Below are positions 6,866 to 46,771 of a stretch of DNA of 64,000 nucleotides, one piece after another. A program made the position numbers and the translations under genes. Positions within the stretch are counted from its first letter, which is position 1. The number at the start of each line of letters is the position of its first letter. Source of the stretch: an uncultured Gammaproteobacteria bacterium (GTDB lineage: Bacteria > Patescibacteriota > Patescibacteriia > UBA9934); contig CAYPWV010000005.1 of NCBI GenBank assembly GCA_964414795.1, positions 4,336 to 68,335 on the forward strand, in the 5' to 3' direction. A model generated the notes under the pieces. The model worked only from the letters and a program-made list of their open reading frames with translations, was not told the DNA's origin and made no database searches.

Positions 6866-6969
6866 AATGTTGTATAACGAAATGAATAAAGAAAATTTTT
6901 GTACGAGATGATAAAGAGTGCGAACAAAAACCGAACATAAGTGTATCCTACTTTTTCTTTTTCTTCTCC

Positions 6970-7665
6970 TTATTCTCGTAACTTATCCACATCCGCCGGC
7001 TGATATACCACAATTCGCTCATCACTAAACGCAGAAGAGTACCGAGAACGTGCAGAAATAAAAAGGCGATTCGGACCTACTTGCAAAGGCACTTCTAAAG
7101 AAAAAGCCCCCTCAGGCGACAAAGGAACCATTTGATCATTAATACGAATGGAAATATTCGTATCATCCGCCGATCCGGTTACAACAACATAAGGGACACC
7201 TACAATGGATTCTTCAAGAGGAGCAACAACGTGAAGCGTGGGCGGAAGAAAACCTACGTAAATACGAGAACACAGCCAAAAAACACCCAAGAAAAAAACA
7301 AACGCAATAAAACTTCCCGTAAAAATTTGCGGAAGAGAAAGGAAAAGAAATCGGCGAGCACGGGTACGAGGAAGTCGGTGAGGAGCGAGGAGATCGGAAC
7401 GCGCAACCTCAAGCGAAAAAAGTTCGAGAAAATAGGTTTCATCTGCACCAAGATACCGGGCATACGCGCGAATAAAGTTTCGCGTATACAGCGGATCAGG
7501 AAGCTCGTGATACCTTCCCCACTCAAGCGCCTCCAAGTAACTACGTTGAATACGTGTTGCTGCAACAATCATATCCATGGTAACCGCCTGCGTGCGTCGC
7601 AAAAGACGCAAACGCTCGCCGAGCGTTTGCGCCTCACTTTCTAAAGGACGACGTACAAAAACCAT
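6970..7665 (-). CDS. RodZ-like membrane protein: N-terminal XRE-type HTH, single TM segment, C-terminal DUF4115-like beta domain
   Basis: The HTH motif is [35 protein letters not shown] hydrophobic segment ([26 protein letters not shown]) follows, then a C-terminal beta-rich region. This matches RodZ domain architecture. Confidence 0.55.
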
Positions 7666-13261: not shown

Positions 13262-13987
13262 TCATTTTTTATCTACATATTTGTAAAATTCAGTTGTTCC
13301 TGATTTAAAAATTTCAAAGTGATTTTTAATGTGTGCCTTAATAATTTCGTAAGGCCGAATCTCATTCCTCTCATTTTTAATCGAAACTGCCCAACAGCAA
13401 TAATCAGCAAGTTGACAATTCAAATCAGAATTCGACGAGTGAGAAAAAATCTCAAATGGTACGGGGGGAAATGCTTCTTTCAAAAAATGTTTTAGTGTTT
13501 GCAGAACAATCTTTTTCTTGTCGCCAGTATAGAGAGAGCCCAGAACGACAACAATTTTATCAACTTTTTCGCGCTTTCCCTCAAATAAGTATTTCAACAA
13601 ACACTCACAACATTTCTTATAAAGACCGAATCCTGTTACTCGTTCAATTAATTTTTTTCGTTTATAATAGTTTTTTTTATATAAAGTTGGGTTGGCTTTA
13701 TTTTTTTGAGCTATCACTGAATGCACTTCAAAAGTTCCATTGAGTTGTTCGAACAAACGAAACACTCGATTTCTCACATCTTGTGAATCCTCGGTTGCGT
13801 GAAAAGATTCTTGATCCAAGCCTTGTACAAGTAATCGATAACGCAAGCGCAATAACTCTTCTCGCTTTATCACGGGATCAAAAGTGACAAAACCCGTAAG
13901 AACAAAAAACTTTGTCCCCTTTGGGGAGAAATCAAAATTTCCTGACTCATCCAAAAACACGAAAATTGTCTTTTGTGTGGACTCCAT
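13262..13987 (-). CDS. DUF3800 family protein (241 aa), embedded between hsdS and hsdR
   Basis: Its N-terminus, IFVFLDESGNFDF, is the [FY]xDESG signature I associate with DUF3800. A paralog lies at 16518-17171. The region is AT-rich relative to its neighbours. Confidence 0.7.
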   Translation of the reverse strand: MESTQKTIFVFLDESGNFDFSPKGTKFFVLTGFVTFDPVIKREELLRLRYRLLVQGLDQESFHATEDSQDVRNRVFRLFEQLNGTFEVHSVIAQKNKANPTLYKKNYYKRKKLIERVTGFGLYKKCCECLLKYLFEGKREKVDKIVVVLGSLYTGDKKKIVLQTLKHFLKEAFPPVPFEIFSHSSNSDLNCQLADYCCWAVSIKNERNEIRPYEIIKAHIKNHFEIFKSGTTEFYKYVDKK

Positions 13988-13991
13988 AGAA

Positions 13992-15143
13992 CTAAATCAA
14001 CTTTACTGATAACAAATCTCTTGATTGTTCCAAAAGCTCGACTTCTTTAATTAACCGTTTTATTTCTTCAAACAACGAAGCAACTCTTTTATGAAATAGG
14101 TTAATTATTGCACCGGTGGGTTCTAATACTTTGATATTTGAGAATATATTAGTATTCACATTCAACGTCGTTGATCCACCTGAACCGATAGCTTGTAAGT
14201 CACTCTTTTTACTTACTAAACTGAAGTACAGAAATTCCAGCAGACTCTTACCATTCGGGATGACGGTATTTATCTGTTGATTCGTCTGTGAGTCTTTCGT
14301 TGTAATTGAAACCAATCCAACGGTTGCAATACAACTCACACAAATCGATCCTTCTGGCACAAGTTTATTTTTTTGAGTACTGGCACCTGCTTCTGTGAGG
14401 CTGTCTTCAGTTTTAATGATAAATACCTGCCCATGCATGTCAGGAATTTTTATAAAAAATATATCACCACCAAAATAGCTTGGTTCAGACTTTGAAGGAG
14501 TTTTTCCACAAACTACATTTCCAAAATCACTGACTTTTCCAACTCGCCACCCCTCCGGAATCTCCCCCATCTCACTCTCAACCAATCCGACCTTCTCATG
14601 ACCAGGAAAGTTAAACTTCACAAACCACTCGTCAAAAATGGCTTGTGCAATTGCTTCAAGATTTTTGATAATGGAGTTGTTGTTTTGTATTTTTTCATCG
14701 TAAGAGCTCAAAATTGCCGCAATCTTTTTTTGATACTGGACATTGGGAATTTTTACTTGCATCCCGTGTATGTGATTACGGTTTAGGGTAGGAACTCCCG
14801 TCCCAGAATTGAATTTTTCAAAATCAAATGACGACAAAAAATAATAACAAAACTTTGGATCATTACCGTGAAAATCACTGACGTACAAGGTCGTGTTATG
14901 CGGCCAATAATCCTCCTCCACGTAAAAGATGCCCCCCAACGATCCACTTCGCCCTGTAAATACACCGGGTCCTCTAACCTTGAACTCATTGTGAAATTCT
15001 CTTCGACCATTCGAGAAGACAACCGGGTATTCACCTTTTTTAATCTCCGTCAGAGGCAGATCATAACCTCGATGAAAGGTGATCACTTCGCCAAGAGTTG
15101 TTTCTTTTCTCTCCTTTTTTATTTGTTCCAAAAATTTGTCCAT
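13992..15143 (-). CDS. hsdS: Type I restriction-modification specificity subunit
   Basis: Two target-recognition domains separated by and ending in conserved coiled-coil spacer regions (LEAIAQAIFDEWFVKF...; C-terminal LFEEIKRLIKEVELLEQSRDLL). It starts 5 nt after the stop of the upstream coiled-coil gene. Confidence 0.9.
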   Translation of the reverse strand: MDKFLEQIKKERKETTLGEVITFHRGYDLPLTEIKKGEYPVVFSNGRREFHNEFKVRGPGVFTGRSGSLGGIFYVEEDYWPHNTTLYVSDFHGNDPKFCYYFLSSFDFEKFNSGTGVPTLNRNHIHGMQVKIPNVQYQKKIAAILSSYDEKIQNNNSIIKNLEAIAQAIFDEWFVKFNFPGHEKVGLVESEMGEIPEGWRVGKVSDFGNVVCGKTPSKSEPSYFGGDIFFIKIPDMHGQVFIIKTEDSLTEAGASTQKNKLVPEGSICVSCIATVGLVSITTKDSQTNQQINTVIPNGKSLLEFLYFSLVSKKSDLQAIGSGGSTTLNVNTNIFSNIKVLEPTGAIINLFHKRVASLFEEIKRLIKEVELLEQSRDLLSVKLI

Positions 15144-15145
15144 AT

Positions 15146-16318
15146 TTATTCTTCTTCTGGCACCGGCAATTCCAACGCCTCAATCTTTTGCAACTGAACA
15201 ACTCCGCTAATATCCCCATAAATACCTATCGTATTTTTAATAACTTTTTGAATCTGTTTTTCTCGCTCCGTCCAAATCTTTTCATAAGCAAGACGCTCCT
15301 TTTGTAAAGAAATATTCATACCTTGAAACGCTTCGACAATCGCCTCAATGCGCTGACGGAATTCAACTCCTGAAAGATAGGAATACATAACTTCCATCTT
15401 TTCATTCTTGCCAACCGAACTGAACTTTTCACGAGCTACCGAAAGAAGTTCTTGCCGAAGAAGTGTGGCAACAGAAACGGCCAATTTTATATCGCAAACC
15501 CATACGCCATCTCGATCAGAGATTGCGTCTGCGCCCGTTGGAAGAACGGACGAGACGATAACCGCGAGATCCGCTTTTACCGTTCGTTGATCGTCCTTAA
15601 GTTTTTGAATCCAGCCTTCAGTCCAAACTTTTGTCTTTTTAGACTCCCAAATAATCTTTCCGCACTCAATACCATTCTTATTTTTAACAATCTGAATTAC
15701 ATCAGCTCCGTTAACTCCTTTGGGGACAAGGATGATATCGTCGTAAATAAATTCACTCTTGAGCGTTTCCTCAAGAATCATTTCTTGAACTTCGCCCTGC
15801 GTCTGCTGCGACCCTTGTTCTAACTTTCTAGCCAACTCATCTTTCGCTTTTGTGGCATCGGAGAGCTGCTTGTTTAACTGATCAATCTTAGCTTGCTGAG
15901 CCTCTGTGGCTCGCTTCGATGCGTCTTCTTCGATCTTCTTTCGCTCTTCATCCATCTGACGCTGTTTCTCTAGCTCAAAGCGGTCTTTCTCTTCTTTTAA
16001 CTGCACAGCCTGACGACGAAGTTCAAGCTCTTTTTCTCCTGACTCCTTAAGCTTTTGCTCCTTGTCCTTAAGTTGCTCCTCTAAAAACTTGCGCTCTGCT
16101 TCACCTTCTTTTGCTACGTCGGCTTTTACTTTTTTCGTAAGGTCAGCAGATAGTGCATCCAACTTCTTTGTATTCTCCCTTTCGAGGGATGCCTTAAGAA
16201 CAGCTTCTTTTTCTTCAAAGTCTTTCTTTAGTTTACTCTCAATCTGGTGCGTCAAAACATCATCGATAGAAATCGACTCATGACAGTTTGGACAGATAAT
16301 TTCGTTTGTTTTTGACAT
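15146..16318 (-). CDS. Zinc-ribbon / long coiled-coil / C-terminal PD-(D/E)xK-like protein (DUF2130-like, 390 aa)
   Basis: N-terminal CPNCHESISIDD zinc ribbon. About 170 aa of E/K-rich heptad coiled coil. C-terminal domain with a candidate nuclease motif (GADVIQIV...GKIIWESKKTK reads as D...ExK). It sits between a DUF3800 gene and hsdS. Confidence 0.6.
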   Translation of the reverse strand: MSKTNEIICPNCHESISIDDVLTHQIESKLKKDFEEKEAVLKASLERENTKKLDALSADLTKKVKADVAKEGEAERKFLEEQLKDKEQKLKESGEKELELRRQAVQLKEEKDRFELEKQRQMDEERKKIEEDASKRATEAQQAKIDQLNKQLSDATKAKDELARKLEQGSQQTQGEVQEMILEETLKSEFIYDDIILVPKGVNGADVIQIVKNKNGIECGKIIWESKKTKVWTEGWIQKLKDDQRTVKADLAVIVSSVLPTGADAISDRDGVWVCDIKLAVSVATLLRQELLSVAREKFSSVGKNEKMEVMYSYLSGVEFRQRIEAIVEAFQGMNISLQKERLAYEKIWTEREKQIQKVIKNTIGIYGDISGVVQLQKIEALELPVPEEE

Positions 16319-16517
16319 ATGGGGATAGATTGACTTTTTGTTCAGATTCTGGTATATTCTTTAGTAGAGGCATGCAATAATATCTTATCTGATGCTTCGG
16401 CGTTCCCTCGGAGTTTCTGGGGTTTCTCTCGGCAACGAGAGATGTAGCTGAAGATATTCATCACATAAGACGCTGCTTCTACCAAAGAAAGTCTGTATCA
16501 CAGGCTTTTTTTGTTTG

Positions 16518-17171
16518 TCATGTGAAAAACTCCTTCCCTTGGTCAAGAAAATTATTCTTGAGAATTTTGTAGCATTCTTCACCAAGTGGGGATTTTTCCA
16601 GATAACGATTCAAGGCTCCGGAGATCCAGTCTACAATCTGCATGTTTGCATTCGATGTAGAATCAACCATTTCCACTTGTACCACGGTTCCTGGAGGACA
16701 AAGCGTAAGAATTCGTGCTCGAATTGATTGTTCAAATTCTTTTTTCGTAACGCCATTTAAAGAGCGCTGGTCGCAAAATACATGAATCTCTTTTTCGTCA
16801 TTAGGAAAATATTGTTCGATAATTTGGGTAATAATATTGGTATAAAGTTTACCGCTCTCAATTTTTCCTTTTTTCCGAAAATTACTCGGGATATTATTTC
16901 GCAGTAAATAACCAAACCGAATACGCACGTCTAATTTTGCAATATATTTCAATGTCTTTATACGAAGATCGTCGGTGATGCCAGATTGCGACCATTTGAT
17001 CTCAGCTTGCGATCGCATCTTTCTCGGAAACCGATCACGCCACGCTCGGAAAGCTTTTGCAGTTCGACGCTGATCACCAACCGTAAAAGATCCAATCACG
17101 AAATACTCCTCATGGTTATGCTTTGTAAAATTGCCACTCTCATCCAAAAAGAGAAACATATTAGAATCCAA
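16518..17171 (-). CDS. DUF3800 family protein, second paralog (217 aa), embedded immediately downstream of hsdM
   Basis: N-terminus MFLFLDESGNFTKH carries the same DESG signature. It overlaps the hsdM stop by 11 nt. Confidence 0.7.
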   Translation of the reverse strand: MDSNMFLFLDESGNFTKHNHEEYFVIGSFTVGDQRRTAKAFRAWRDRFPRKMRSQAEIKWSQSGITDDLRIKTLKYIAKLDVRIRFGYLLRNNIPSNFRKKGKIESGKLYTNIITQIIEQYFPNDEKEIHVFCDQRSLNGVTKKEFEQSIRARILTLCPPGTVVQVEMVDSTSNANMQIVDWISGALNRYLEKSPLGEECYKILKNNFLDQGKEFFT

Positions 17172-18957
17172 GCTCTTTCAAGTTGCCCTCAATAACATTC
17201 TCTAGTTCGTGTCCGCGTTTAAAGGAAATATGCAGTTCATCGGAAAGCTTTTTCATCTTTTCCTCGAACGAGATGCCGTCATCTTCCACCTCGGAGAGTC
17301 CGACATATCGTCCTGGAGTGAGGACGTAACCGTTCTTTTGAATCTCATCTAACGTTGCCGATCGGCAATAACCAAGGATGTCCTCGTATGCACCGGCTCC
17401 ATCCTCTCCGCGCCACGCACGAACCGTCCCTGCAATCTTTTGTATATGCTCTGCGTTGAATACAACTTGCTTACGTGAAATCTGCTCGAACAATTCTCGG
17501 GCATCAATAAAAAGCGTTTCTCCTTTGCGAGAGCGGAAGCGGTCACCACCTTTATTTTTTGATAAGAACCAAAGCGATACAGGAAGCCCAACGTTGTAGA
17601 AAAGTTTAGAGGGACAGGAAATAATCACGTCAACAAAATCCGTTTCGATAAGTTTTTGTCGAAGCTCACCTTCTTTTCCAGATACTGCCAACGCACCGTT
17701 TGGCATGACAAATCCAGCGTTTCCGTTGGGCGCGAGATGATGCACAAAATGCTGTATCCACATGAAGTTGGCATTTCCCGAAGGGGGAAGGCCAAGAATG
17801 ATCCGGGGATCGTTGTCCGAAAGTTTCGAGGGTTCCCATTCACCATTGAAGGGAGGATTCGTGATAACGAAATCCGCCTGCAAATGCGGGAACATGTCGT
17901 TATAGTAAGTGTTGCCGAGTTCGATCTTTCCGGAAAGGCCTCGGATCGCAAGGTTCATCTTGGCAAGGCGAAGCGTTGTCTGGTTGCTTTCCTGACCATT
18001 AAATGAAAGTTTTGGCGCATCCTTCCCATGTTCGCGAAGATATTCAGCTATGGATACGAACATGCCACCGCTTCCACAGGCAGGATCAAAAACGCGAGCA
18101 TTCTCTCGCGGCTCAAGAACTTCTACTAAAAGTTTTACGATCGAACGCGGAGTGAAAAATTCTCCGCCACGTTTGCCCTCCGCTGAGGCAAACTGCCCAA
18201 GGAAGTACTCGTAAATGCGCCCAAGGATATCTTTTTCTCGATCAAAATCATGATTGAATGAAATGCGGGAAAAGATGTTAACCAATTCACCCAATACCGA
18301 ATGATCAAGATTTGTTTTTGTATATACGCGTGGAAGTACATTTTCAAGTTGATCAGGATTATCCTTCTCGATAAGCATCATTGCATCATCTAAAACCTTT
18401 CCCAAATCCGCGCTCATTGTCTTCGTTTGGAGATACTCCCAACGCGACCGTTCTGGAACGTAGAAAACACCTTCCGCGGTATAAAAATCTTTAGTCTCAA
18501 GAATTTGCTTACGAGCCTCCTCGTTCGAAACATAGAAATCCTCGTTCTTTGGATCGCGAGTCATTTCCGCGAGTACCTCACGACGTTTGTAGAAAGAATC
18601 CGAAATGTATTTTAAAAAGAGAAGCCCGAGAACGATGTTCTTATATTCGGAGACATCGATATTTCCACGGAGCTTATCAGCGGCTGCCCACAGTTCTTTT
18701 TCGAAGCCAAGATCATGGTGCTGACTCTTTTTTCCGACCACGCTTGCCGTCGCCTTCTTCTGCTCTTCCGTGATTCGTCCTTGAAGCTCCTCGGAAAGAG
18801 AGGCCTTGGGGATAACAAAGGTCGGTTTCGACGAATCGCCGATATTTTCAGCAATAATGTCACCTTTCTTAATTTTCTGGTGAACAGCCACACGAGAAAT
18901 CCCCAGCATCTTGGCTAGCTGGGTTGGAGTAATGAATTGGGATTTATCGATGGACAT
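17161..18957 (-). CDS. hsdM: Type I restriction-modification DNA methyltransferase (N6-adenine) with an extra N-terminal HTH domain
   Basis: HsdM_N region (ELWAAADKLRGNIDVSEYKNIVLGLLFLKYISD), the SAM motif (FDPACGSGGMF) and the catalytic VITNPPFN motif. The first ~80 aa are an additional HTH (ITPTQLAKMLGISRVAVHQKIKKGDI). Confidence 0.93.
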   Translation of the reverse strand: MSIDKSQFITPTQLAKMLGISRVAVHQKIKKGDIIAENIGDSSKPTFVIPKASLSEELQGRITEEQKKATASVVGKKSQHHDLGFEKELWAAADKLRGNIDVSEYKNIVLGLLFLKYISDSFYKRREVLAEMTRDPKNEDFYVSNEEARKQILETKDFYTAEGVFYVPERSRWEYLQTKTMSADLGKVLDDAMMLIEKDNPDQLENVLPRVYTKTNLDHSVLGELVNIFSRISFNHDFDREKDILGRIYEYFLGQFASAEGKRGGEFFTPRSIVKLLVEVLEPRENARVFDPACGSGGMFVSIAEYLREHGKDAPKLSFNGQESNQTTLRLAKMNLAIRGLSGKIELGNTYYNDMFPHLQADFVITNPPFNGEWEPSKLSDNDPRIILGLPPSGNANFMWIQHFVHHLAPNGNAGFVMPNGALAVSGKEGELRQKLIETDFVDVIISCPSKLFYNVGLPVSLWFLSKNKGGDRFRSRKGETLFIDARELFEQISRKQVVFNAEHIQKIAGTVRAWRGEDGAGAYEDILGYCRSATLDEIQKNGYVLTPGRYVGLSEVEDDGISFEEKMKKLSDELHISFKRGHELENVIEGNLKELGF

Positions 18958-25689: not shown

Positions 25690-28002
25690 CTAGAGCGATG
25701 AGGGAATTTCAGAAATAGTTTCAGGAGTTTCTTCCGGCAATGGATCAGGCAACGCCGCATCATCTTGCACTTCCCCACTTTGCAAGCGATTGAGACGCTG
25801 CTGTACAGCCTCATTATCGGGATTAGCTTTTGCGACTTCGGCGACTTCGGCGATTGCCCCTTCAATATCACCCGCCTGTTCAAGCAACACCGAAAGATAC
25901 CAATGTGCATTAGCGTAATTGGGCGAGAGACGAATGATGCGTTCAAGTTCAGCTTGCGCAAGATCATTTTTTTCTTGTCGTAAATAAAGGAGTGAAAGTT
26001 GCATACCTACACCTACGTCACTTTGCTGCAACGCACGCACCGTTTCCATCGCTTGCACCGCATCAACAAGACTTCCTTCGCGTTCATAGACTGCAGAAAG
26101 AAAATAATACGCAGCAGGATAATCTCCTTTTAACGCAATAGCTTTCGTAAACGCATTCTCCGCATACATAAAAGCCGCATCTCTTTTTGTCGTTGCATCA
26201 GCCTTTAGTGCTGCATCTTCCGTACTTGTATTTTGCGCAAAAAGATCTCCCTGCGCAGTGTACGCTCGTCCAAGCCCAACGAAATAGAGCGGATTATTCG
26301 GCGCGAGTTCCGTTGCGGTAAGAAATGAGGTGACGGAAAAATCAGCCGCATGATCAATTGCCGGCGCTACCTCGCGATACACATTCCCACGCACTTCCCA
26401 GTTTTGCACCACACGTGGACCAATTTCGGTTGCACGCACTGCGGCATGTACTGCGGAACCAAGCACAAGTTGAATTTGCTCCGTGGGAGCATGCGCCTCA
26501 ACAAGCGCATTGATACGCTGCAACAGTAATAAGCTCAACTCCCGATAATACACATCATTCCATCGATTAAACGATGCCGCTTGATCTACTTTTGCAATAA
26601 CATCCTCGGGCGCCGCACCTTTTCTTTCTTGCGCAATCGCCTGCGCATAGGTAATTTCTGCCGCATAACGCGTTCCCGTAACAAAAAACGCAAGAAGAGA
26701 AACAATACCTAAAGCAACAACACTCAACACCGCAACAAGCGAAGAACGAGACGAGGAAACGAACGACCACACCACAGTTCGAGACGATCCTATCGACAAA
26801 AGAAGACCAAACAACACAAACATGATAAACACGAGCGGTGTATTCCATGCATACGTCCATGCAGAGACGGAAAGAAAAACGAATGCAAGGTAGATACCGA
26901 GCATATTTCCTCGCTGCGATGCATGCATGCAAGCGTATGATCGAAAACCTGCGACAATTCCCGAGATCTGGAGCAAAACAAACGTAAACGCCGTAAGCAA
27001 TCCTCCCGTTGTCGCAAGTGTGAGGATATGCGAAAATCCGCGATCAAATACCACATTCCAAAATGCGGTTGCGTTGACGGTGGGAAGTGCGTACAGTGCG
27101 TATGAGATGCCGTACGTACCAGGACCTGAACCTACAAAAAATCCAAAACCGTTATGCCAAACGCTCGTAACAATATCTGTACTTAACGAAAAAGAAGGAA
27201 CGATCTCAACAGGAAAGAACCCTTGAAAAATAGGCGGCAAAATCCATCCCACAAAAGACAAAATCACAAGAAGAACGCCGGGGAGAACATGACTCATCGA
27301 GATCTGTTTTTTCTGAGGGACAAGCGTACACAACAGCAAGGCAACACCCGCTACACACGACGGCAGCCACAAAACCCACGCATCCAATAAAAATGAGACG
27401 ATGAGGAAAGAGGCAAGAAGAACATATCCCGCAATCTTTTCAGCTCGTCCAGCCGAACCCATTGCTATTCCTCCCAAAGAGCAGAGCGTCGCAATGCCAA
27501 AAAACAATGCCAGTGCGTGCGGAGCTCCAAATGAAAGCACGGGAGAAAAAGAGAAAATGCCCGTAAAAATAAGCAGTAAAGCTCCCGTCATAAGTAGTCC
27601 TTCAACGGCCCAAACAACACGAACATACTTCAGTAAAAAAGCAGATTGCGCCGACGCCTGTGCAAGTAAAAAACTCATAAGTACACACGATCCTACAAAC
27701 AACACACTTGCATAATCACCTCCTCCAATCCCCAACCAACTCGCCGCAGGATACACAGAAAAACATGCAGAAACCACCGTTACCAAAAAAAAGATACCAA
27801 GAAAAACCAACGGCCACGACCAAAGCAAGCGAAGCTCTTTTGTTCGCGCAACATGAACAAGAAACAGTGTTCCTGCGATAAGAGACGCAACAATCGCCAC
27901 AGTCACCTTATGCACTTCATACGCATCAACAAACCAAGGAAGAACGAGGATGGGAACGATGGCGATCGAAAAAAGGAGAGGAAAAAGAAAGGACTTTCCC
28001 AT
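25690..28002 (-). CDS. Polytopic membrane protein: O-antigen-ligase/Wzy_C-like N-terminal domain (about 12 TM) plus C-terminal TPR repeats (770 aa)
   Basis: Many hydrophobic helices and a large periplasmic loop typical of the Wzy_C/O-antigen ligase/PglL family. The C-terminal ~300 aa are TPR-like (AYYFLSAVYEREGSLVDAVQA, ANAHWYLSVLLEQAGDIEGAIAE). Confidence 0.7.
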   Translation of the reverse strand: MGKSFLFPLLFSIAIVPILVLPWFVDAYEVHKVTVAIVASLIAGTLFLVHVARTKELRLLWSWPLVFLGIFFLVTVVSACFSVYPAASWLGIGGGDYASVLFVGSCVLMSFLLAQASAQSAFLLKYVRVVWAVEGLLMTGALLLIFTGIFSFSPVLSFGAPHALALFFGIATLCSLGGIAMGSAGRAEKIAGYVLLASFLIVSFLLDAWVLWLPSCVAGVALLLCTLVPQKKQISMSHVLPGVLLVILSFVGWILPPIFQGFFPVEIVPSFSLSTDIVTSVWHNGFGFFVGSGPGTYGISYALYALPTVNATAFWNVVFDRGFSHILTLATTGGLLTAFTFVLLQISGIVAGFRSYACMHASQRGNMLGIYLAFVFLSVSAWTYAWNTPLVFIMFVLFGLLLSIGSSRTVVWSFVSSSRSSLVAVLSVVALGIVSLLAFFVTGTRYAAEITYAQAIAQERKGAAPEDVIAKVDQAASFNRWNDVYYRELSLLLLQRINALVEAHAPTEQIQLVLGSAVHAAVRATEIGPRVVQNWEVRGNVYREVAPAIDHAADFSVTSFLTATELAPNNPLYFVGLGRAYTAQGDLFAQNTSTEDAALKADATTKRDAAFMYAENAFTKAIALKGDYPAAYYFLSAVYEREGSLVDAVQAMETVRALQQSDVGVGMQLSLLYLRQEKNDLAQAELERIIRLSPNYANAHWYLSVLLEQAGDIEGAIAEVAEVAKANPDNEAVQQRLNRLQSGEVQDDAALPDPLPEETPETISEIPSSL

Positions 28003-38303: not shown

Positions 38304-39308
38304 TCAAGAAACTTGCTTTACGCGCGCAAAAAGAAGTTCTTCAAGAAGACGTTCAACCAAAATGTCTGCCGAAATACCAGATTTTGTATTCTTATCCCAC
38401 ATAAGTGCCTTTTCCAAAGTCTCCATAAGTGCGTCATGAGAAAAGCATTTTACTCCCTGCAGCGCTTTTTGCGCCACAAAAGGATGAAGCGCAAGCGTAT
38501 CCGCAATCTCTTTTTGCGAAATGATGCCTTGGCGTACCAGCGAAGAAACTCCCACAAACACGCGCAATTGACGAAGAAGTCCGCCAAAAAGACCAAACGC
38601 ATCCGCTCCAGAATCCATTTCTCTCCGGAATGCATGAGTAAGCTTTTCTGGAGTTGCGGAAGAAATGAGATCGAGAAATGCAAAAAAGTCCGAAGAAATA
38701 TGCAAAGGAACAAGGCGCTCAATCATGTCTTCGGTTATAGATGATCCCGCAGCATATGCAGCAAGTTTCTGTATCTCCGTTGCAAGATCTTGGCTCGCAC
38801 CTCCCACGCGTGCATAAAGCACGTTCGCAACTTCTTCAGATATGTTCGCATTTGCCTTGAGTACACGTGCACGAATCCAAGCTATACATTCCGTACGAGA
38901 AAGAGGAGGAATAGGGAAGTGTTTCACTTCTTCTGCAGAACGTGTTCCTAGCCACGTCGCCAAATGACTCTTTTTCCAAGTCGCTTCCGAAAGCTCGTCA
39001 ACAAAGCAAAGCGACGTACGTTCATCTAAACGTCCAAAAACCTCCGTCCAAAAAGGCGCATCAACTTTCTTTAAAACATCCGCAACATTTTTTACAAAAA
39101 TAAATCGCTTCTCCGCTAAAAAGGGCGCGGCTTGAAGCGAAGGAATAAACGGTTCCTTCGAAATCGTAGCAAAATCAAACACCTCAACGTTTAATCGAGA
39201 CGGATCATACTTCGCGACAAACTTTTCAAGCAAATCCTCAGCAAACTCTCGCACACGAAGTGTATCTTCTCCATATACCGCAAGAAACATATAAACAATA
39301 TTACGCAA
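38304..39308 (-). CDS. holA: DNA polymerase III delta subunit
   Basis: 334-aa protein with a delta-subunit N-terminal region (VYMFLAVYGEDTLRVRE). It overlaps the polA stop by 8 nt. Confidence 0.75.
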   Translation of the reverse strand: MRNIVYMFLAVYGEDTLRVREFAEDLLEKFVAKYDPSRLNVEVFDFATISKEPFIPSLQAAPFLAEKRFIFVKNVADVLKKVDAPFWTEVFGRLDERTSLCFVDELSEATWKKSHLATWLGTRSAEEVKHFPIPPLSRTECIAWIRARVLKANANISEEVANVLYARVGGASQDLATEIQKLAAYAAGSSITEDMIERLVPLHISSDFFAFLDLISSATPEKLTHAFRREMDSGADAFGLFGGLLRQLRVFVGVSSLVRQGIISQKEIADTLALHPFVAQKALQGVKCFSHDALMETLEKALMWDKNTKSGISADILVERLLEELLFARVKQVS

Positions 39309-41913
39309 TGTCTCCCCAACTTTTTCCCATCGCTACATCAACAACGAGAGGAACACGGAACGATGCGACCGCAGACATTTTTTCTACAACCATTTTCTGT
39401 ACCTCCTCAACATCGTCTTCATGAACCTCAAGAACAAGTTCGTCGTGTACTTGGAGCAAAAGCTTAGCGCGTAGGCCTGCTTTTTCAAGCGAGGATGCGA
39501 GCGTAATCATCGCCATTTTAATGATATCCGCTTGCGTTCCTTGGATAGGCATGTTCATTGCCATACGCTCTGCAGCCGCAACAAGCTGCGGAACACCCGA
39601 AGTAATATCAGGCAAATAACGCCGGCGACCAAACAGTGTTTGCACATAACCCTGAGCACGTGCTTGCAGCTTCATCGCATCAATATACGCCTGAATTCCT
39701 GGATGCACCACAAAATACCGCGCAATAAATTCACGCGCTTCTTCAAACTTCATGCCCGTTGCACGCGCAAGCGCATGCGGCCCAACACCGTACAAAATAC
39801 TAAAGTTAATCGCCTTTGCTGCCGCACGCTGATCCTTCGTTACCGCATCTTCGGAAATATTCCACACCTCTGCTGCAGTACGGCGGTGAATGTCTGCACC
39901 ATCTTTAAACGCACGAATAAACGATTCGTCATTTGCCAATTCAGCAGCTAAACGCAATTCAATTTGCGAATAGTCAGCCGACAAAAGCACATAGTCCGGC
40001 TTTGCAACAAATGCGTAGCGAATCTTTTTGCCAAGCTCCGTGCGGATAGGAATGTTCTGCAGGTTTGGCGTATGAGAAGACAGACGTCCCGTCGCCGCAA
40101 TAGTTTGACTGTAACACGTATGAATACGACCATCGGGTGCGATAAGCTCAGGAAGCGTATCAGAGTAGGTTGATTTAAGCTTCGCAATTTCCCGATATTC
40201 TTCAATAAGCGGAACAATCGCATGGGTATCCCACAACTTTTCGAGCTCAGGAGCGGCTGTAGAAAAACCTGATTTTGTTTTTTTAATGCCTTTCGTAGGA
40301 AGCTTAAGCGTTTCAAAAAGAACGCCTGCAAGCTGAGAAGGGGAATTAACGTTAAATTCAACGCCCGCTAATGCATAAATCTTTTTGGTAAGCGCAGTAA
40401 TTTTTTCTCCCAAAGCTTGCGAAAAATCATTCAGCATTTTTTTATCAACACAAATCCCTTCATGTTCCATGGTAAACAACACGGCAATAAGCGGCATCTC
40501 TACATCAAGATACAGCTTTTTCATACCAACAGCTTCAAGCTTTTTTTCAAGCACTTCACCCAGTGCAGGAAGTACACACACAAGCTCTTCTTCGGTTTTT
40601 ACCGTTTGCTCAAGAATGTCATGCACAATACTTGCAAGAGGGAAGTCACGCGCACCGGAATTCAGCATGTACGCAATCACCTCTGCGTCATACAGCGACC
40701 GTGATGCAAGTGCATGCGAGATATCAACGCCCATATTCGCAAACGCATGCATAGTGGCTTTTGCACCATGCGTTACTACATACTTCATGCGCAACAATTC
40801 TTGCACAACAATTTCAAGTACCGCTTTATCAGGATGCTCAACACGCCACATCCGCTTGCTATCAGAAAGCGCAATGCTGGCAATATGGGAACCAAACATG
40901 TCGGGCTGCTTGAGCGTCACAAAAAAACCAATCCAATCTCCCATCACCCCACCCGGCGTAGAAATCACCGTCATACCCGAAGCATGTTCGGAAACGTTCT
41001 TTTTTCCTCGCTTCTTTTCTTTTATTTCAGAAGATGCACCTCCGTATTTTTTCAAAAGCGCAGAAAATTCGAGATCGCTAAATAATGCGCGAAGACGCAC
41101 GTCATCGGGCACGCCCACCAAACACGCAGAACGAGAAAAATCTGCTAAAGGAACATTTTGAACAATTTCTCCCAAAAAACGCATCTTTCGCGCAGTCTCT
41201 TCATGCTGAGCAAACTTTTTTGCATACTTCTCAGGAACTTCACCCGTTTTGAGCGCCGCAAGAATGCCCTCCACATTTCCAAACTTTTTTACCAACTCCA
41301 CCGCACTCTTTTCACCAATACCCGGAACACCCGGAAGATTGTCGGACGAATCTCCCATGAGCGCTTTTACTTCAATGAGTTCCAGGGGAGTAACGCCAAA
41401 GCGCTCCTCAACCGCAGCGGCGTCGTACACCTTCACTTCAGAAAGTCCCTTCACAAAAAAAACGACTTTCGTGGTGTCATTCACAAGCTGCAACGCATCA
41501 CGATCACCCGTAACAATAAGCGTTTCCACATCTCCCGCATCTGCATTCATTTTTGCAACAGTACCAATAACATCATCAGCCTCATAGCCAGGAGCACTGA
41601 GCGAAGGAACGCCGTACGCCGCAAGAATTTCTTGAATAGTGGGAATTTGCGCGTAGAGTTCATCAGCTTTTTTTTCGCGCTGCGCCTTGTATGGTTCGTA
41701 CGCCTCATGACGAAACGTTGCGCCCGGCAAATCCCAGGCAACTGCCATGTACGTTGGTTTGTACACGCTGAGCATTTTTTCAACCACGTTCGTAAATCCG
41801 TATGCAGCATTCACCACACGTCCATCACGCGTAACCAGCGGCGGAATAGCATGCCACGCTCGATGCAAAAGAGCGTTTCCATCCAAAACAAGAAAGGTTT
41901 TTTGCGATTCCAT
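39301..41913 (-). CDS. polA: DNA polymerase I
   Basis: 5'-3' exonuclease N-terminus (LVLDGNALLHRAWHA...GYEADDVIGT), HhH region, and polymerase motifs A/B/C (LLSADYSQIELR, RRAAKAINFSILYG, LLLQVHDELVLEV). Confidence 0.95.
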   Translation of the reverse strand: MESQKTFLVLDGNALLHRAWHAIPPLVTRDGRVVNAAYGFTNVVEKMLSVYKPTYMAVAWDLPGATFRHEAYEPYKAQREKKADELYAQIPTIQEILAAYGVPSLSAPGYEADDVIGTVAKMNADAGDVETLIVTGDRDALQLVNDTTKVVFFVKGLSEVKVYDAAAVEERFGVTPLELIEVKALMGDSSDNLPGVPGIGEKSAVELVKKFGNVEGILAALKTGEVPEKYAKKFAQHEETARKMRFLGEIVQNVPLADFSRSACLVGVPDDVRLRALFSDLEFSALLKKYGGASSEIKEKKRGKKNVSEHASGMTVISTPGGVMGDWIGFFVTLKQPDMFGSHIASIALSDSKRMWRVEHPDKAVLEIVVQELLRMKYVVTHGAKATMHAFANMGVDISHALASRSLYDAEVIAYMLNSGARDFPLASIVHDILEQTVKTEEELVCVLPALGEVLEKKLEAVGMKKLYLDVEMPLIAVLFTMEHEGICVDKKMLNDFSQALGEKITALTKKIYALAGVEFNVNSPSQLAGVLFETLKLPTKGIKKTKSGFSTAAPELEKLWDTHAIVPLIEEYREIAKLKSTYSDTLPELIAPDGRIHTCYSQTIAATGRLSSHTPNLQNIPIRTELGKKIRYAFVAKPDYVLLSADYSQIELRLAAELANDESFIRAFKDGADIHRRTAAEVWNISEDAVTKDQRAAAKAINFSILYGVGPHALARATGMKFEEAREFIARYFVVHPGIQAYIDAMKLQARAQGYVQTLFGRRRYLPDITSGVPQLVAAAERMAMNMPIQGTQADIIKMAMITLASSLEKAGLRAKLLLQVHDELVLEVHEDDVEEVQKMVVEKMSAVASFRVPLVVDVAMGKSWGDIA

Positions 41914-42006
41914 AGAGTAAAATCATCATACCAAAATCTCCCAAAAAGATCCCATAAAAACAATCGCCGCCCCCACGTTGTCAGGAGCGGCACGCGGAAG
42001 AACACG

Positions 42007-42522
42007 CTAGCTAGATAAGTCAGTTCCGTGCCCCTTGAAATCCTTCAAAAGAGCAGTGATTCGACGAACCTGTCTCGTCACTTCAGGAGGGGGAGTATCT
42101 TCAAAGGCAAAGAACCAGAGACTGACGTCGCCATTCTTCGCCTTGCTGTCGTCGCGAAGCTCTTTGCTGTCCCGCCCCACGGCAATAAAGAGACAGCCCT
42201 CATCATCCTGAAGGGCCGAGAAAATGATGAGCTTGTCCTCAGCCGAAAGACATTCCCGCTCCGCATCTTCAAGATCGTCAACCCGAGCACCGATGTTATC
42301 GTCGTCCGAGAGAGATTCTTGATCCACGGCATCGATACCAACGAGCTCGGTAGAGAGCATGCCCCGAATCCAAGCCTCGGGCATATCGTCGATCGACCTC
42401 GGACCAAAGACCAAGAAGCGAGCCTCTTTCTCGCCCCGCATTACCGCAGAAACGAGAAGGTACAAAACACCTGTATCACTCGGAATCAACACTCGAGCAC
42501 GAAGTATGAATTCGTCTTCCAT
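42007..42522 (-). CDS. Hypothetical highly acidic protein (171 aa) within the GC-rich islet
   Basis: Strong SD (GGGAGGA) 8 nt upstream. GC-rich third codon positions. Local GC far above flanks. No family recognised. Confidence 0.55.
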   Translation of the reverse strand: MEDEFILRARVLIPSDTGVLYLLVSAVMRGEKEARFLVFGPRSIDDMPEAWIRGMLSTELVGIDAVDQESLSDDDNIGARVDDLEDAERECLSAEDKLIIFSALQDDEGCLFIAVGRDSKELRDDSKAKNGDVSLWFFAFEDTPPPEVTRQVRRITALLKDFKGHGTDLSS

Positions 42523-42569
42523 GGCTTTTTATCCTCCCGTTTAATTCTCCTCGCGAAACAAAGTCTTGT

Positions 42570-42602
42570 CAAAAAAAACAGAAAACCCGGCGCTTGGCCG
42601 GG
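42570..42602 (-). terminator. Rho-independent terminator (CCCGGCCAAGCGCCGGG followed by a T-rich run on the minus strand) inside the islet
   Basis: GC hairpin plus TTTTCTGTTTTTTTT on the minus strand. It is ~250 nt downstream of the 42846 gene stop, leaving room for a small ORF or 3' UTR. Confidence 0.5.
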
Positions 42603-42845
42603 CACTCGGAAGTGAGGAAGGGAAATCTAATGCCACCTCAAAAAATCGTCGTCAGAGTTCGCGCCACGCGCTTCGAGCAGCATGGCGACGAGCGCCTCTT
42701 GCGAGGGTCGCTCCGCGCAAGCAACCAGCTCAGGAGAGGGATTTTGAGAGACGTACCGCAAACTATCTTCACACAAAACAGGAAACCCGGCCCGCAAGGA
42801 TCGCCTCGCTTGACCGGGTACTTGGAGACGAGAAGACGCCAACCT

Positions 42846-43355
42846 TCAGCTGTTGGTCTCGGCGTCGTCGACCGCCTCAGTATCGGAATCAAAACCCCCG
42901 ATAACAAAGAGTTCGATCACATTGGTGGGAGGAGCCGCCGGAACGCATGCGCTCTCAAACACCACTTCTCCAGCAGCCGAGGAAGATCCTTCATCTACCT
43001 CCAGCTCCAAAGACATGTGAAACTGCTCCTCCCGTCGACGGGCAACGGCATTTGAGTCCTCATCGAGATCGATCTCGGGCGGAATCATGATCATTGGGTC
43101 GATGGCCAGAGACAACCCAGCGACATCGTCAGGCTCAGCCGTATCTCCGCCGAAGCTCATCCACTCAAGGCCTGCGCGGGTGTCGACGTCAACACGAGCC
43201 TCCGCATCGTGCCACTGATCAGCCTCCTCGAGGTCGACCTGGTAGGCCGCCTCCCGCTGGAATTCGGTCCACTTGCCGTGGCGGCACCGAATCTCGACGA
43301 GATCTGCAGGGGAAAGGGGTGACTCGAGCGTATCAGAAATACTGGGTTCAGACAT
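42846..43355 (-). CDS. Hypothetical highly acidic protein (169 aa) within the GC-rich islet
   Basis: SD GGAGGA 7 nt upstream of the internal Met MSEPSIS. Asp/Glu-rich (DLEEADQWHDAEARVDVD, EIDLDEDS). No family recognised. Confidence 0.55.
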   Translation of the reverse strand: MSEPSISDTLESPLSPADLVEIRCRHGKWTEFQREAAYQVDLEEADQWHDAEARVDVDTRAGLEWMSFGGDTAEPDDVAGLSLAIDPMIMIPPEIDLDEDSNAVARRREEQFHMSLELEVDEGSSSAAGEVVFESACVPAAPPTNVIELFVIGGFDSDTEAVDDAETNS

Positions 43356-43512
43356 GAGGAAATCCTCCGGAATCCGTGGTGTTTTTGCCGAAAAGGCCAC
43401 GCTAAAGTACCAGAAAACGACAAAAAAGACAAATAATGGAACGAGATTTTACAAAAAGAGAAAAACTTGAAAAAGGAAGCAAAGGCGTGTTATTCTGTTT
43501 CGGCGTAGCCAT

Positions 43513-43587
43513 GGCGGTTATAGCTCAATGGTAGAGCACCGGGTTGTGGTCCCGGCTACACGGGTTCGATCCCCGTTAATCGCCCCA
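43513..43587 (+). tRNA. tRNA-His (anticodon GTG) with G-1 and encoded CCA
   Basis: Manual cloverleaf: G-1 pairing with discriminator C73, acceptor GCGGTTA/TAATCGC, anticodon loop UUGUGGU, T-arm ACGGG-TTCGATC-CCCGT. Confidence 0.9.
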
Positions 43588-43634
43588 CAAAAAATCCTCC
43601 TTTGTCCTTTATGGATGATGGGAGGATTTTTTGT

Positions 43635-44711
43635 TTAAACCTCTTGAATAACATCAAATCCATTAAAACTTCCTACCAAACCCAAGCCAATAATTTTCCC
43701 CGTGCACAATTCTTTTCTTCGTATTTGTCGCGCAACTTCATACATCGTTGCCCCAGATCCTACCGCATCATCAATCAACAAAATATTCTTATAATGTCCG
43801 GTATCTTCAACAACAATGGATTGCTTTACATTTTCTAATCGATCTTCAAGTTTTGTAAGCGTTTTCTGTGGAACAATAATAGGAGTCTTTATTTTTGTAA
43901 TGACGATGCTCGGCAAAGAAATACTCATCTCTTTTTCAAATTCTTTCATAAACTGCACAGAACGTTGAATGGTGGGGGGAATAAAACATATCGCATCAAT
44001 CTTCAAACGATCGATGAGATCAACGATGCGAGGACGAACTTCTTGCACAACATTCTTAATAAGGTCTCGCCGCTGCCCTTGTTTAGCATAAAGAATCATT
44101 TCACCAAGTTTTGTTTTTCCAAAACGCTCAATACTGTAAAAATCAAGATGGAACAACGCGTCAAGGGCACTATCAGAAAAAGTCTTTCGCATTTTTTCTG
44201 TTGCATCAATGACACCGTGATGAATATACGAGTGATATTTCTTCAACGTCATTCGATATTCCTGTGCAGTTTTTTGAGGATTGAGATTTCTTCTAAGACA
44301 CCACGTTACAAAAGCGGATGCACCTGTTTGCAAGACACCATTGGGTTCTACTTTTAAAAAATGTTCGTTAAGAACATGAAGCATCTCTACGTCAAAATGA
44401 TACTTCTGTAATGCAGAAGACTGCATCTTTACAACGTAAAAAACTTTTGGGGGATAGCCCTGTTTTTGAATACGCTCTTCAGTAAGGAGGCGAGTGAGGT
44501 GCCTAAATATCGCCTGCGGGGTAAGTCGCATGTGTTCAGCGATTGTTTTAGGAGAAACTCGCTCCTGCTCAACAATAAATTGAAAAATACGTTCCCGTGT
44601 ATCATTTTTCATATCTTTATTGTTTATAGTATATACTAAACTATAAACTATTACAATAGCACCTACTCCAAAATAAAAAAGACGCCGGACCACAATGAGC
44701 CGTGAACCCAT
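43635..44711 (-). CDS. Winged-HTH plus phosphoribosyltransferase-type domain protein (PurR-like regulator, or ComF-like without a zinc finger)
   Basis: N-terminal HTH (RERIFQFIVEQERVSPKTIAEHMRLTPQAIFRHLTRL). C-terminal PRTase PRPP motif (NILLIDDAVGSGATMYEVARQI). An alternative start lies at 44612 (MKNDTRE). Confidence 0.55.
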   Translation of the reverse strand: MGSRLIVVRRLFYFGVGAIVIVYSLVYTINNKDMKNDTRERIFQFIVEQERVSPKTIAEHMRLTPQAIFRHLTRLLTEERIQKQGYPPKVFYVVKMQSSALQKYHFDVEMLHVLNEHFLKVEPNGVLQTGASAFVTWCLRRNLNPQKTAQEYRMTLKKYHSYIHHGVIDATEKMRKTFSDSALDALFHLDFYSIERFGKTKLGEMILYAKQGQRRDLIKNVVQEVRPRIVDLIDRLKIDAICFIPPTIQRSVQFMKEFEKEMSISLPSIVITKIKTPIIVPQKTLTKLEDRLENVKQSIVVEDTGHYKNILLIDDAVGSGATMYEVARQIRRKELCTGKIIGLGLVGSFNGFDVIQEV

Positions 44712-45332: not shown

Positions 45333-45812
45333 ATGAAAGGAGATGCAGTGCCGTTTATTGAAAAAATCACCTCGTGGGTGGGATCTTTTGGATCGCTCAT
45401 CATCCATACGCTTCTTTTTGCCATTATTTTATGCGTTGGCGCGCTTGGCATCCTTTCGTGGGACATCGTCCTGCTCGTCCTCACCACGGGCGTATCCCTT
45501 GAGGCAATTTACTTGGCAATTTTCATTCAAATGAGCGTCAATCAGCAGTCACAAGTCATGAAAGAAGTGGAGCAAAATGTCGACGAGATCAAAGAAGATG
45601 TTGATGAAATCCAGGAAGATGTGGGAGAGATTCAAGAAGATGTCGACGAAATTCAAAAAGATATTGATGCAATCGAAGAAGACGTTGATGAAATTCAGGA
45701 AGACGAAGCCGAGGATGACAAACGCGACAGAGAACACCAAGAAACCCTTGCCGCAATGTCCGTCAACCTGCAAAAACTGTTACAAGATATTGAAAAAATG
45801 AAAAAGAGCTAG
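45333..45812 (+). CDS. DUF1003 family membrane protein with a C-terminal tandem-repeat acidic coiled coil
   Basis: Two TM helices and the conserved LSLEAIYLAIFIQMSVNQQ block that I recognise from DUF1003 proteins. Five tandem 24-nt repeats encode (E/K)DVDEIQ. Confidence 0.75.
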   Translation: MKGDAVPFIEKITSWVGSFGSLIIHTLLFAIILCVGALGILSWDIVLLVLTTGVSLEAIYLAIFIQMSVNQQSQVMKEVEQNVDEIKEDVDEIQEDVGEIQEDVDEIQKDIDAIEEDVDEIQEDEAEDDKRDREHQETLAAMSVNLQKLLQDIEKMKKS

Positions 45813-46771
45813 CTACTCTTTTTCGATTTGTCGGAGTCGTGGAAAGATTGGTAGACACGTTTGAGTTCGCGATCAGTAATATGCGTGTACACCTGCGTTG
45901 TGGTAATCGACTCATGACCAAGCATGGTCTGCACCGCGCGAATGTCAGCGCCATTGCGCAAAAGATCGGTAGCGAAGGTGTGACGAAGCGTGTGCGGCGT
46001 AACGGACTTGGTAATTCCCGCCATCCGCGCATACCGATCAACAAGTCGCTGAATGGAACGCGAGGTAAGCGGCTTTGACGTTTCTCCCACGGTTTTGGTG
46101 CGCTGCGCTTTATCGTGTCGCACAAACATGTACAGCGAAATGCTTTGCCGCTTTTCTAAATATACCTTGATGGCATCACGCGCAGCAGGTGATAAAAAAA
46201 CGAGACGATGTTTTTTTCCTTTTCCAAGCACCGTAAATTCCTCATTCTTTAAATTAACCTGCTCAATCTTCAGTCCTGCAAGCTCAGAGACACGCAAGCC
46301 CGTAGAAAAAAGAAGTTCAAGAATCGCCTTGTCGCGATAGCCAAGAATAGTGGGATCTTTTCCAGGTTCCGCGAGAATACGTGGCAATTCTTCTTTTTCC
46401 AAAAACTCCACATGGCGAGAATCTTGCTTTGCAAGTTCAATTTTTTCTGCGGCAAGCGACTTTACGTCACGCTTTGCTAAATATTTTAAAAACGCGCGCA
46501 GAGCAATGAGATGATAGTTCTGCGTTGCCTTTCCCAGTGTTGCCGCATCTCGTCCCGATACATCGCGGTTCAAGTACAGCCGAAACTTCCGCACCATCTC
46601 GCCATTAATTTCCAGCGGGGCAGGGGACTTTGCCCAGTCGCTAAAACGCATCAAATAAAAACGATAATTCCGCACCGTTTTATCCGATCGCCCTCGTTCA
46701 ATTTCTAAATATTCAAGAAATTCCTTAATCAACGGCTCCAAATGCTTCCCCATATACACCAAGTATAGCAC
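45809..46771 (-). CDS. xerC: Tyrosine site-specific recombinase (XerC/XerD-like)
   Basis: Catalytic region R...HTLRHTFATDLLRNGADIRAVQTMLGHESITTTQVYTHI with the catalytic Tyr. The N-terminal core-binding domain is present. Confidence 0.88.
   Translation of the reverse strand: MLYLVYMGKHLEPLIKEFLEYLEIERGRSDKTVRNYRFYLMRFSDWAKSPAPLEINGEMVRKFRLYLNRDVSGRDAATLGKATQNYHLIALRAFLKYLAKRDVKSLAAEKIELAKQDSRHVEFLEKEELPRILAEPGKDPTILGYRDKAILELLFSTGLRVSELAGLKIEQVNLKNEEFTVLGKGKKHRLVFLSPAARDAIKVYLEKRQSISLYMFVRHDKAQRTKTVGETSKPLTSRSIQRLVDRYARMAGITKSVTPHTLRHTFATDLLRNGADIRAVQTMLGHESITTTQVYTHITDRELKRVYQSFHDSDKSKKSS

Follow-up and report, generated by a model that had tools for sequence, protein, structure and literature searches.

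A GC-rich islet with a new family of acidic proteins between tRNA-His and polA of a Patescibacteria genome, probably acquired by horizontal transfer

The region between the tRNA-His gene and polA of a Patescibacteria (Candidate Phyla Radiation, CPR) genome was analyzed in a 64-kb stretch of contig CAYPWV010000005.1, called the window below; islet coordinates are window positions. The region holds a small GC-rich islet, whose genes lie on the minus strand and include two open reading frames (ORFs) for small acidic proteins, ORF A and ORF B. Compared with related genomes, the islet is an insertion of ~1.5 kb that is missing from the tRNA-His/polA spacer of the closest relatives, and conservation shows ORF A to be a genuine gene under selective constraint, part of a tiny new family of acidic proteins that diverges fast. 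The best explanation is a strain-variable ~1.5-kb insertion (~41960-43445) of autonomous expression units that were horizontally acquired; its probability is put at about 0.6. Related loci and contigs used for comparison are labeled L004, L005, L006, L009, L010, L043, and L084-L088.

The genes around the islet are a ComF-like gene, tRNA-His, polA, and holA; the same neighborhood (ComF-like gene, tRNA-His, polA, holA, S20) is found in relatives of the L004/L005 type. The best relatives of PolA are Patescibacteria metagenome-assembled genomes, with 80% identity to L004 in the best tblastn segment (82% in full-length alignment) and 78% to L005. The conserved left flank of the slot is tRNA-His (GTG), at 43514-43587 on the plus strand (ARAGORN; Rfam, 67 bits), which is 94-97% identical to the polA-adjacent tRNA-His of L004, L005, and L010. 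Next to it, on the minus strand, a retained ancestral spacer (43446-43513) keeps the conserved blocks AGAATAaCAcG and TTTTTCAAG, as seen in alignment with L004 and L087. The conserved right flank is polA (39301-41913, minus strand, 870 aa), with a -10-like TATGAT at ~41929-41934 that is common to L005 and L087.

All features between these flanks are on the minus strand. ORF B (42846-43355) encodes 169 aa with an isoelectric point (pI) of 4.05, a net charge of -32, and 24.3% Asp plus Glu, and its GC content at third codon positions (GC3) is 0.63; if translation began instead at a GTG at 43400, the protein would have 184 aa. A GGAGGA ribosome-binding site (43363-43368), recognized in the sequence and in a Shine-Dalgarno (SD) survey, lies 6-7 nt before the ATG, and a promoter-like TTTTCA-16-TAAAAT (43473-43446) from the promoter scan could drive the gene. 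ORF B is followed by terminator hairpin T1 with a T-run (42775-42819, -23.8 kcal/mol) and then by a GC-rich remnant of ~170 nt (42608-42774). The remnant contains a degenerate promoter-like stretch, no convincing ORF, and no RNA family in Rfam; it is interpreted as a decayed cassette. Terminator hairpin T2 with its T-run (42567-42607, -16.4 kcal/mol) comes next, followed by the promoter of ORF A, TTGACA-17-GAGAAT (42544-42572; promoter scan and family alignment), and by a GGGAGGA ribosome-binding site (42532-42538; sequence and SD survey) 8 nt before the ATG. ORF A itself (42007-42522) encodes 171 aa (pI 4.34, net charge -17, 21.6% Asp plus Glu, GC3 0.56). A third terminator hairpin with a T-run, T3 (41955-41992, -18 kcal/mol), lies between ORF A and polA; equivalent hairpins are found 3' of the ORF A homologues in L086 and L087.

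A preliminary description of this DNA had reported two small acidic ORFs of 171 and 169 aa beside tRNA-His, both with strong GGAGGA-type ribosome-binding sites, and the present analysis confirms these points. It had also placed one GC-hairpin terminator between the ORFs; the hairpin is there, but the count is two (T1 and T2). Its room for a ~70-aa ORF corresponds to a 71-aa frame that is present but unlikely to be a gene: the TTG start lies inside T1, no family matches, and the only plasmid match has an expectation value (E) of 0.9, so this candidate was rejected. Paralogy of ORF A and ORF B was likewise rejected (BLASTP E 3.9). Neither protein sequence shows a signal peptide or a transmembrane segment. 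T1 is a copy of the T2 module with additional loop bases; together with the sequence downstream of each, the two make up a direct repeat of 33 nt at a distance of 200 nt. Their core motif GCCGGGTTTYCTGTTTT occurs twice in the 64 kb against 0.05 expected, and nowhere outside T1/T2. The hairpin motif GGTAGCCAACGGCTACC gave eight matches in viral contigs; the similarity stops at 18-19 nt and is therefore treated as chance.

The insertion is delimited by comparison with relatives. Between tRNA-His and polA there are 1600 bp here versus 146 bp in L004, 295 bp in L005, 130 bp in L006, and 232 bp in L010. BLASTN homology to the relatives stops just past the tRNA (~43509) and restarts at the polA start codon, and ancestral spacer blocks are kept at both islet edges: AGAATAGCATG and TTTTTCAAG next to the tRNA, the TATGAT box on the polA side. 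These end points and the surviving blocks together place the inserted DNA at ~41960-43445. Over its first 183 residues, the PolA of L086 shares 97% identity with that of L004, yet L086 has a cassette and L004 has none, which points to recent gain or loss. The islet is found as an identical sequence, junctions included, in two Logan assemblies (SRR16481186 and SRR16481187). The SRR16481187 contig begins at window position 43212, inside ORF B, and the SRR16481186 contig reads through; the contig start may reflect population heterogeneity within the islet.

The islet also stands out in composition. The GC content of 42007-43400 is 55.2%, the maximum among all 1.4-kb segments of the window (elsewhere mean 45.2%, standard deviation 2.8, maximum 51.9); the window mean is 45.4%. 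The GC-rich peak described earlier is thus real, but the ~58% then given for the whole islet fits ORF B only (~58.2-58.5%, compared with ~52.5-52.7% for ORF A and 54.8% for the inter-ORF spacer). The abrupt GC shift claimed for both ends is seen next to tRNA-His, where GC falls from 0.60 to 0.35 over ~500 bp, and not on the polA side, where the drop is gradual and the polA 5' end itself has a GC of 0.48-0.50. Structured RNA was rejected as the source of the peak: in an Rfam E-value scan of 41500-44000, tRNA-His was the sole match, and the inter-terminator segment folds just a little better than shuffles (z -2.5).

The same GC excess could belong to native, vertically inherited genes that were lost in relatives, the GC then arising from a composition rich in Asp, Glu, Gly, and Ala or from high expression. 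Amino acids alone do lift the expectation: with native synonymous codon frequencies taken from 36 other window genes, the expected GC is 47.5% for ORF A and 50.9% for ORF B, and the expected GC3 is 0.40 and 0.41. In the GC and codon-usage check that the preliminary description had proposed, however, the actual GC3 of 0.56 and 0.63 exceeds native codon usage (z = 4.3 and 5.8), so amino-acid composition accounts for only part of the excess. The non-coding spacer is likewise GC-rich, with 54.8% versus 41.4 ± 5.3% in native intergenic DNA. Shine-Dalgarno usage is a second, independent non-native signature of the islet: with native starts taken as those of the longest ORFs, a GGAGG-type site at proper spacing precedes none of the ~37 native window genes, polA with its homology-fixed start included, but both islet ORFs (6-8 nt). 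Further evidence on native origin comes from the ORF A family and its neighbors, described below.

ORF A had been said to have no recognizable family. That no longer holds, since it belongs to a small undescribed one. When 1.84 billion representatives were scanned exhaustively with HMMER, five homologues (164-203 aa, E 8e-11 to 6.6e-6) came up, with alignments that span residues ~10-155, and all six members are singletons among ~15 billion proteins. A word-indexed search of 5.8 billion clusters with ORF A returned only the self-match, and the family profile, searched in the same way against the same clusters, returned just two members already known. The six members and their alignment match nothing in Pfam, NCBIfam, PHROGs, or the Protein Data Bank (PDB), and sub-alignments of the family have no match in IMG/VR or in the JGI metagenomes. 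A suspected likeness to DUF1292/UPF0473 found no backing in Pfam and was dropped.

The family alignment has 16 invariant columns and the conserved motifs D-x-x-G-[VI]-P-[YH]-L, S-x-x-Q-[DE], V-G, L-W-[VI]-[FY], and P-P-E-[VI]. In every pair of members, identity is highest at the second codon position, lower at the first, and lowest at the third, and the ratio of nonsynonymous to synonymous substitution rates (dN/dS) is ~0.17 (L085/L086) and ~0.28 (L084/L088) in the closest pairs. Together, these patterns indicate that the sense frame of ORF A is under purifying selection and that a 195-aa antisense ORF is its by-product. The promoter is common to the six genes: TTTTGACA, with a T-run, is invariant as the -35 element, 17 nt separate it from a -10 box that ends in AT, and a purine-rich SD is likewise shared. 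All six proteins are acidic (pI 4.05-4.34, 20-24% Asp plus Glu), and Lys plus Arg make up 5-6% in the five homologues versus 12% in ORF A. About half of the negative charge falls in two length-variable, poorly conserved segments, a linker of 24-34 residues between the two halves and a loop of 12-22 residues, and Asp or Glu is found in at least five of the six sequences at 13 alignment columns only. A single-sequence AlphaFold2 model of ORF A is poor (mean predicted local distance difference test, pLDDT, 39.1) and hints at two beta-beta-beta-alpha halves. Profile comparison of one half with the other (hhalign, E 0.031, probability 1.6%) makes an internal duplication suggestive only, and none is claimed.

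The homologues bear on the locus as well as on the gene. In L087, the ORF A homologue comes directly after tRNA-His, and polA comes next; in L086, the homologue is again followed by polA. Both homologues with a visible downstream neighbor thus lie immediately 5' of polA, while L084, L085, and L088, contigs of <1 kb, show no core gene. Upstream of the homologue, three contigs carry C-terminal ends of a second family of acidic ORFs (L084:2-187, L086:3-167, and L088:1-30). This family, recovered as C-terminal ends only, has a GC3 of 0.90-0.93 and ends in ...GEAA(A)QG, followed by a conserved GGTAGCC-AAC-GGCTACC hairpin. L085:1-140 is instead a mid-domain fragment of a GH3 glycosidase (Pfam E 4e-5, GC3 0.91), which breaks off at the start of the hairpin 3' arm.

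More distant slots hold other contents. In L009, whose polA is 58% identical, the same slot (6530-7500) contains an unrelated 276-aa ORF (GC3 0.72) that has a TTGACA promoter and a terminator of its own and matched no family. In L043 (7560-7960), the slot is a 600-bp spacer with a GC-rich core, a TTGAC(A/T) promoter-like site, and a terminator. The same flanks therefore enclose other GC-rich units in L009, L043, L086, and L087 and none in L004, L005, L006, and L010, and the cargo of the window is atypical (window-maximum GC of 55.2%, GC3 z = 4.3/5.8, atypical SD usage). Gene order and composition in these loci support the view that the tRNA-His/polA slot is a horizontal-transfer hotspot shared by a clade.

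Several local observations were made at these loci. In L087:1-250, an intact 75-nt tRNA-His (5-79) lies upstream of the ORF A homologue, and ~110 bp further on there is a second copy of the window type, truncated and without its 3' end (~187-249); the doubled tRNA-His is a hint that the tRNA was once a site of recombination or duplication. Downstream of the homologue in L085 (712-866), a terminator plus TTGACA-17-GAGAAT unit opens a further ORF (MSEGYRITL...). In islet-free L005 (7740-7815), a ~70-nt GC-rich segment sits within a hairpin loop that is short and AT-rich in L004.

With these loci in view, native inheritance of the islet genes appears unlikely. The ORF A family does lie upstream of polA in three related genomes, as vertical descent would have it, but its members are 24-58% identical where the adjacent polA proteins are 75-97% identical, presence and absence differ between genomes with nearly the same PolA N-terminus (97% over 183 residues), and the neighboring fragments reach a GC3 of 0.90-0.93. 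These points add to the GC3 excess, the GC-rich spacer, and the deviant SD usage. Horizontal acquisition, as the preliminary description had proposed, is well supported by the absence of the islet from the nearest relatives, the GC3 excess, the GC-rich spacer, the GGAGG sites, and the high GC3 of the neighboring fragments. Homologues of native composition in related low-GC genomes had been named as a possible argument against it. Homologues do exist in related genomes, and all are GC-rich (GC3 0.59-0.71 versus 0.42-0.45 for the adjacent polA), so a foreign origin is not refuted on this count.

Hairpins between single genes also invite an integron-like explanation, in which the GC-rich hairpins would be sites for inserting and shuffling foreign units and gene fragments, e.g. 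from high-GC hosts. Its appeal lies in the tandem single-gene units bounded by related hairpins (T1/T2), in cargo that differs between strains, in the GH3 fragment of L085 cut exactly at the start of the hairpin 3' arm, and in L084 and L088, where the ORF A homologue lies between two strong-hairpin variants (-34 to -40 kcal/mol) in opposite order on the two contigs. An integron integrase, however, is missing: the sole nearby tyrosine recombinase (45809-46771) is of the XerC/XerD type (XerC 253, XerD 243, integron integrase 132 bits, all under curated cut-offs), and its orthologue is kept in islet-free L005. The hairpins have T-runs and behave as ordinary intrinsic terminators, no GTTRRRY core can be read at the T1/T2 junctions, and the units have their own promoters (TTGACA-N17 in each ORF A-family gene). 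The evidence from relatives comes from contigs of 0.8-1.5 kb and low coverage; the L085 contig, with 866 bp at ~2.6x coverage, may be a chimera. Integron-like capture is therefore very improbable.

A bolder version of this idea would make the tRNA-His/polA slot a dedicated capture-and-express locus with the GC-rich hairpins as recombination junctions and with the acidic proteins acting as putative, fast-evolving decoys of host or phage nucleic-acid-binding proteins. The neighboring Xer-type recombinase or competence-related single-strand uptake might then bring in DNA from high-GC host or neighbor bacteria, to be expressed from the invariant strong promoter. If this were so, an episymbiont would possess an integron-like system that lacks IntI, but the chance that it is true is very slim indeed.

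ORF B differs from ORF A in the kind of evidence available: its coding status is judged from the SD, promoter, terminator, and codon-position GC and not by comparison. In a word-indexed search of the 5.8 billion clusters, it matched only itself, so the earlier statement that it has no recognizable family stands for this kind of search; exhaustive HMMER searching was not applied to ORF B. The fetched loci, phage records, plasmids, and IMG/VR contained no relative either. By itself, the length of an islet ORF is weak evidence of a gene, as at least one ORF of at least 169 aa appears in 21% of dinucleotide shuffles of the islet and two such ORFs appear in 1.9%. The gene status of ORF B rests instead on its GGAGGA, a start at the first ATG, its own promoter-like site and terminator, and a frame that is the sole one open over the whole span. 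On these grounds, ORF B is probably a gene.

The shuffles also lend something to the view that the islet, or ORF B at least, is decaying, non-functional foreign DNA, its open frames being a side effect of high GC content. Two long antisense ORFs (195 and 153 aa) exist too, a decayed remnant lies between the two ORFs, ORF B has no homologue among the ~5.8 billion clusters searched by word index, and its single-sequence AlphaFold2 model (pLDDT 34.5) is almost entirely coil. Set against this are the purifying selection on ORF A and its conserved promoter, and for ORF B a GGAGGA ideally spaced from the first ATG, a promoter-like site, a terminator of its own, and the sole open frame. Decay of the islet as a whole, or of ORF B, is accordingly considered an improbable account.

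As to function, the preliminary description had suggested DNA-mimic-type inhibitors comparable to ArdA and Ocr, while noting that no ArdA motif was seen. Applied to the present data, ORF A and ORF B would encode putative DNA mimics that inhibit type I restriction-modification (R-M) enzymes. The proteins are indeed small (169-171 aa), very acidic (pI 4.05-4.34), and encoded on foreign DNA, and a type I R-M system (hsdR, hsdM) is present in the same window. The database check it had recommended, however, gave no match for either ORF in Pfam, NCBIfam, PHROG, or PADLOC (E ≤ 1, the other ORF A-family members included) or in PDB, and the ArdA/Ocr profiles match neither ORF nor any family member. For ArdA (PF07275), neither the two ORFs nor the other family members hit any Pfam family at E ≤ 1; for Ocr (T7 gp0.3), the Pfam and PHROG scans were empty, as were PDB sequence and profile searches at E ≤ 10, the family profile included. 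No relative of the islet proteins appeared in the phage, plasmid, and IMG/VR collections, and no mobile-element genes lie near the islet.

Chromosomal genes behind a near-consensus promoter would, moreover, disarm the cell's own R-M system instead of aiding incoming DNA, which makes little biological sense. About half of the charge lies in length-variable loops, with 13 conserved acidic columns, which may speak against mimicry; the structure models (pLDDT 39.1 and 34.5) are too poor to reveal any charge pattern. No finding ties ORF A or ORF B to anti-restriction, and the DNA-mimic idea is without positive support; it is judged improbable. What may be suggested, tentatively and with considerable doubt, is that the islet products may be cytoplasmic, with a core rich in beta structure and long acidic loops that vary in length, and that they might act as stoichiometric binders or decoys of basic, probably nucleic-acid-binding partners. 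The R-M locus lies 24 kb from the islet (hsdR 10113-13163 and hsdM 17161-18957, minus strand). Between its two genes, unannotated ORFs occupy a stretch of low GC (13262-17171, 36-42%), which may be an acquired island.

The explanation favored here, a strain-variable insertion of acquired expression units, can be put as follows. The islet would be built from single-gene units on the polA strand, each made up of an ORF with a GGAGG site, preceded by a sigma-70-type promoter and closed by a GC-rich intrinsic terminator. Two of these units appear to be complete, ORF B and then ORF A, and between them lies the decayed remnant of ~170 nt bracketed by two copies of the terminator/promoter module. The units would have been acquired horizontally from a GC-richer, SD-using source, and they may be swapped or lost when the conserved flanks, or else the repeated terminator modules, undergo homologous recombination, presumably with no dedicated recombinase for the exchange. 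Horizontal transfer and genomic islands are documented in Patescibacteria generally (PMC12455944).

Several points weigh against this explanation. No donor of the islet DNA was identified, and no recombination junction was fixed to the nucleotide. Part of the GC excess is given by amino-acid composition itself (expected 47.5-50.9% versus a window mean of 45.4%). The ORF A family has just six members, three of them on contigs of <1 kb without a flanking core gene, so that its occurrence only in this slot rests on three loci. ORF B is without comparative support, and ORFs of equal length arise in 21% of shuffles. For the binder or decoy function, the structure models are poor (pLDDT 39 and 34.5) and the profile libraries hold no match.

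If the explanation is right, a streamlined CPR genome of the ~1-Mb class keeps a slot beside an essential gene, in which GC-rich, self-expressing foreign genes are swapped among close relatives. The ORF A family adds a new and extremely rare kind of acidic protein, with six singletons among ~15 billion proteins, and its constraint combined with a divergence far faster than that of its neighbors is what one typically sees in genes involved in conflict or interaction. The islet also raises the question of how SD-led foreign genes are translated where native genes have no SD sites.

Two further features of the window were noted outside the islet. A DUF1003/DUF948-like membrane protein gene (45333-45812, plus strand) contains a 21-nt tandem repeat of 5.3 copies (45592-45703) that encodes an acidic, EDVDEIQ-like heptad; the gene is conserved beside tRNA-Arg(TCT) in L005. 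An unusually high AT skew of 0.41 was seen at 26601-28000, within the gene of a 770-aa tetratricopeptide repeat (TPR) protein (25690-28002, minus strand), where no tandem repeat was found.

Among known systems, horizontal-transfer hotspots and islets flanked by core genes and tRNAs are a general concept, and the islet resembles them in its conserved flanks (tRNA-His and polA) and in the differing, atypical, mostly ORFan cargo of close relatives. It differs from them in being tiny (1.5 kb, single-gene units) and in having no integrase or mobile-element gene. Unlike tRNA-associated islands, it lies 5' of the tRNA and not at the tRNA 3' end, and every unit has its own promoter, SD, and terminator; no integrase is adjacent to tRNA-His, and the sole repeat of the tRNA-His 3' end (18/23 nt at 42628-42650) is on the wrong side for a tRNA-targeted integrative island.

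With integron cassette arrays, the islet shares tandem single-gene units, hairpin-forming repeats between them, and strain-variable content that includes gene fragments; unlike them, it has neither IntI nor an attC core, its hairpins are terminators with T-runs, and its cassettes carry promoters. With ArdA (PF07275) and Ocr (T7 gp0.3), its products share small size, strong acidity, and a place on acquired DNA, whereas they have no sequence or profile similarity to them and their acidity is concentrated in variable loops. The genes lie on the chromosome between core genes, not on a plasmid, transposon, or phage; anti-restriction genes as a class are carried by plasmids, phages, or integrative and conjugative elements, in their leading or early parts. 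Ugi, DMP19, and the anti-CRISPR proteins AcrF2 and AcrIIA4 are small acidic DNA- or protein-mimic inhibitors; compared by sequence, the islet products are like this class in size, charge, and, for the ORF A family, rapid divergence plus purifying selection, and unlike it in having no detectable homology and no link to phages or defense loci. A core-flanked islet of horizontal gene transfer with ORFan cargo is, then, a known kind of feature and no major surprise; what is new is the ORF A family.

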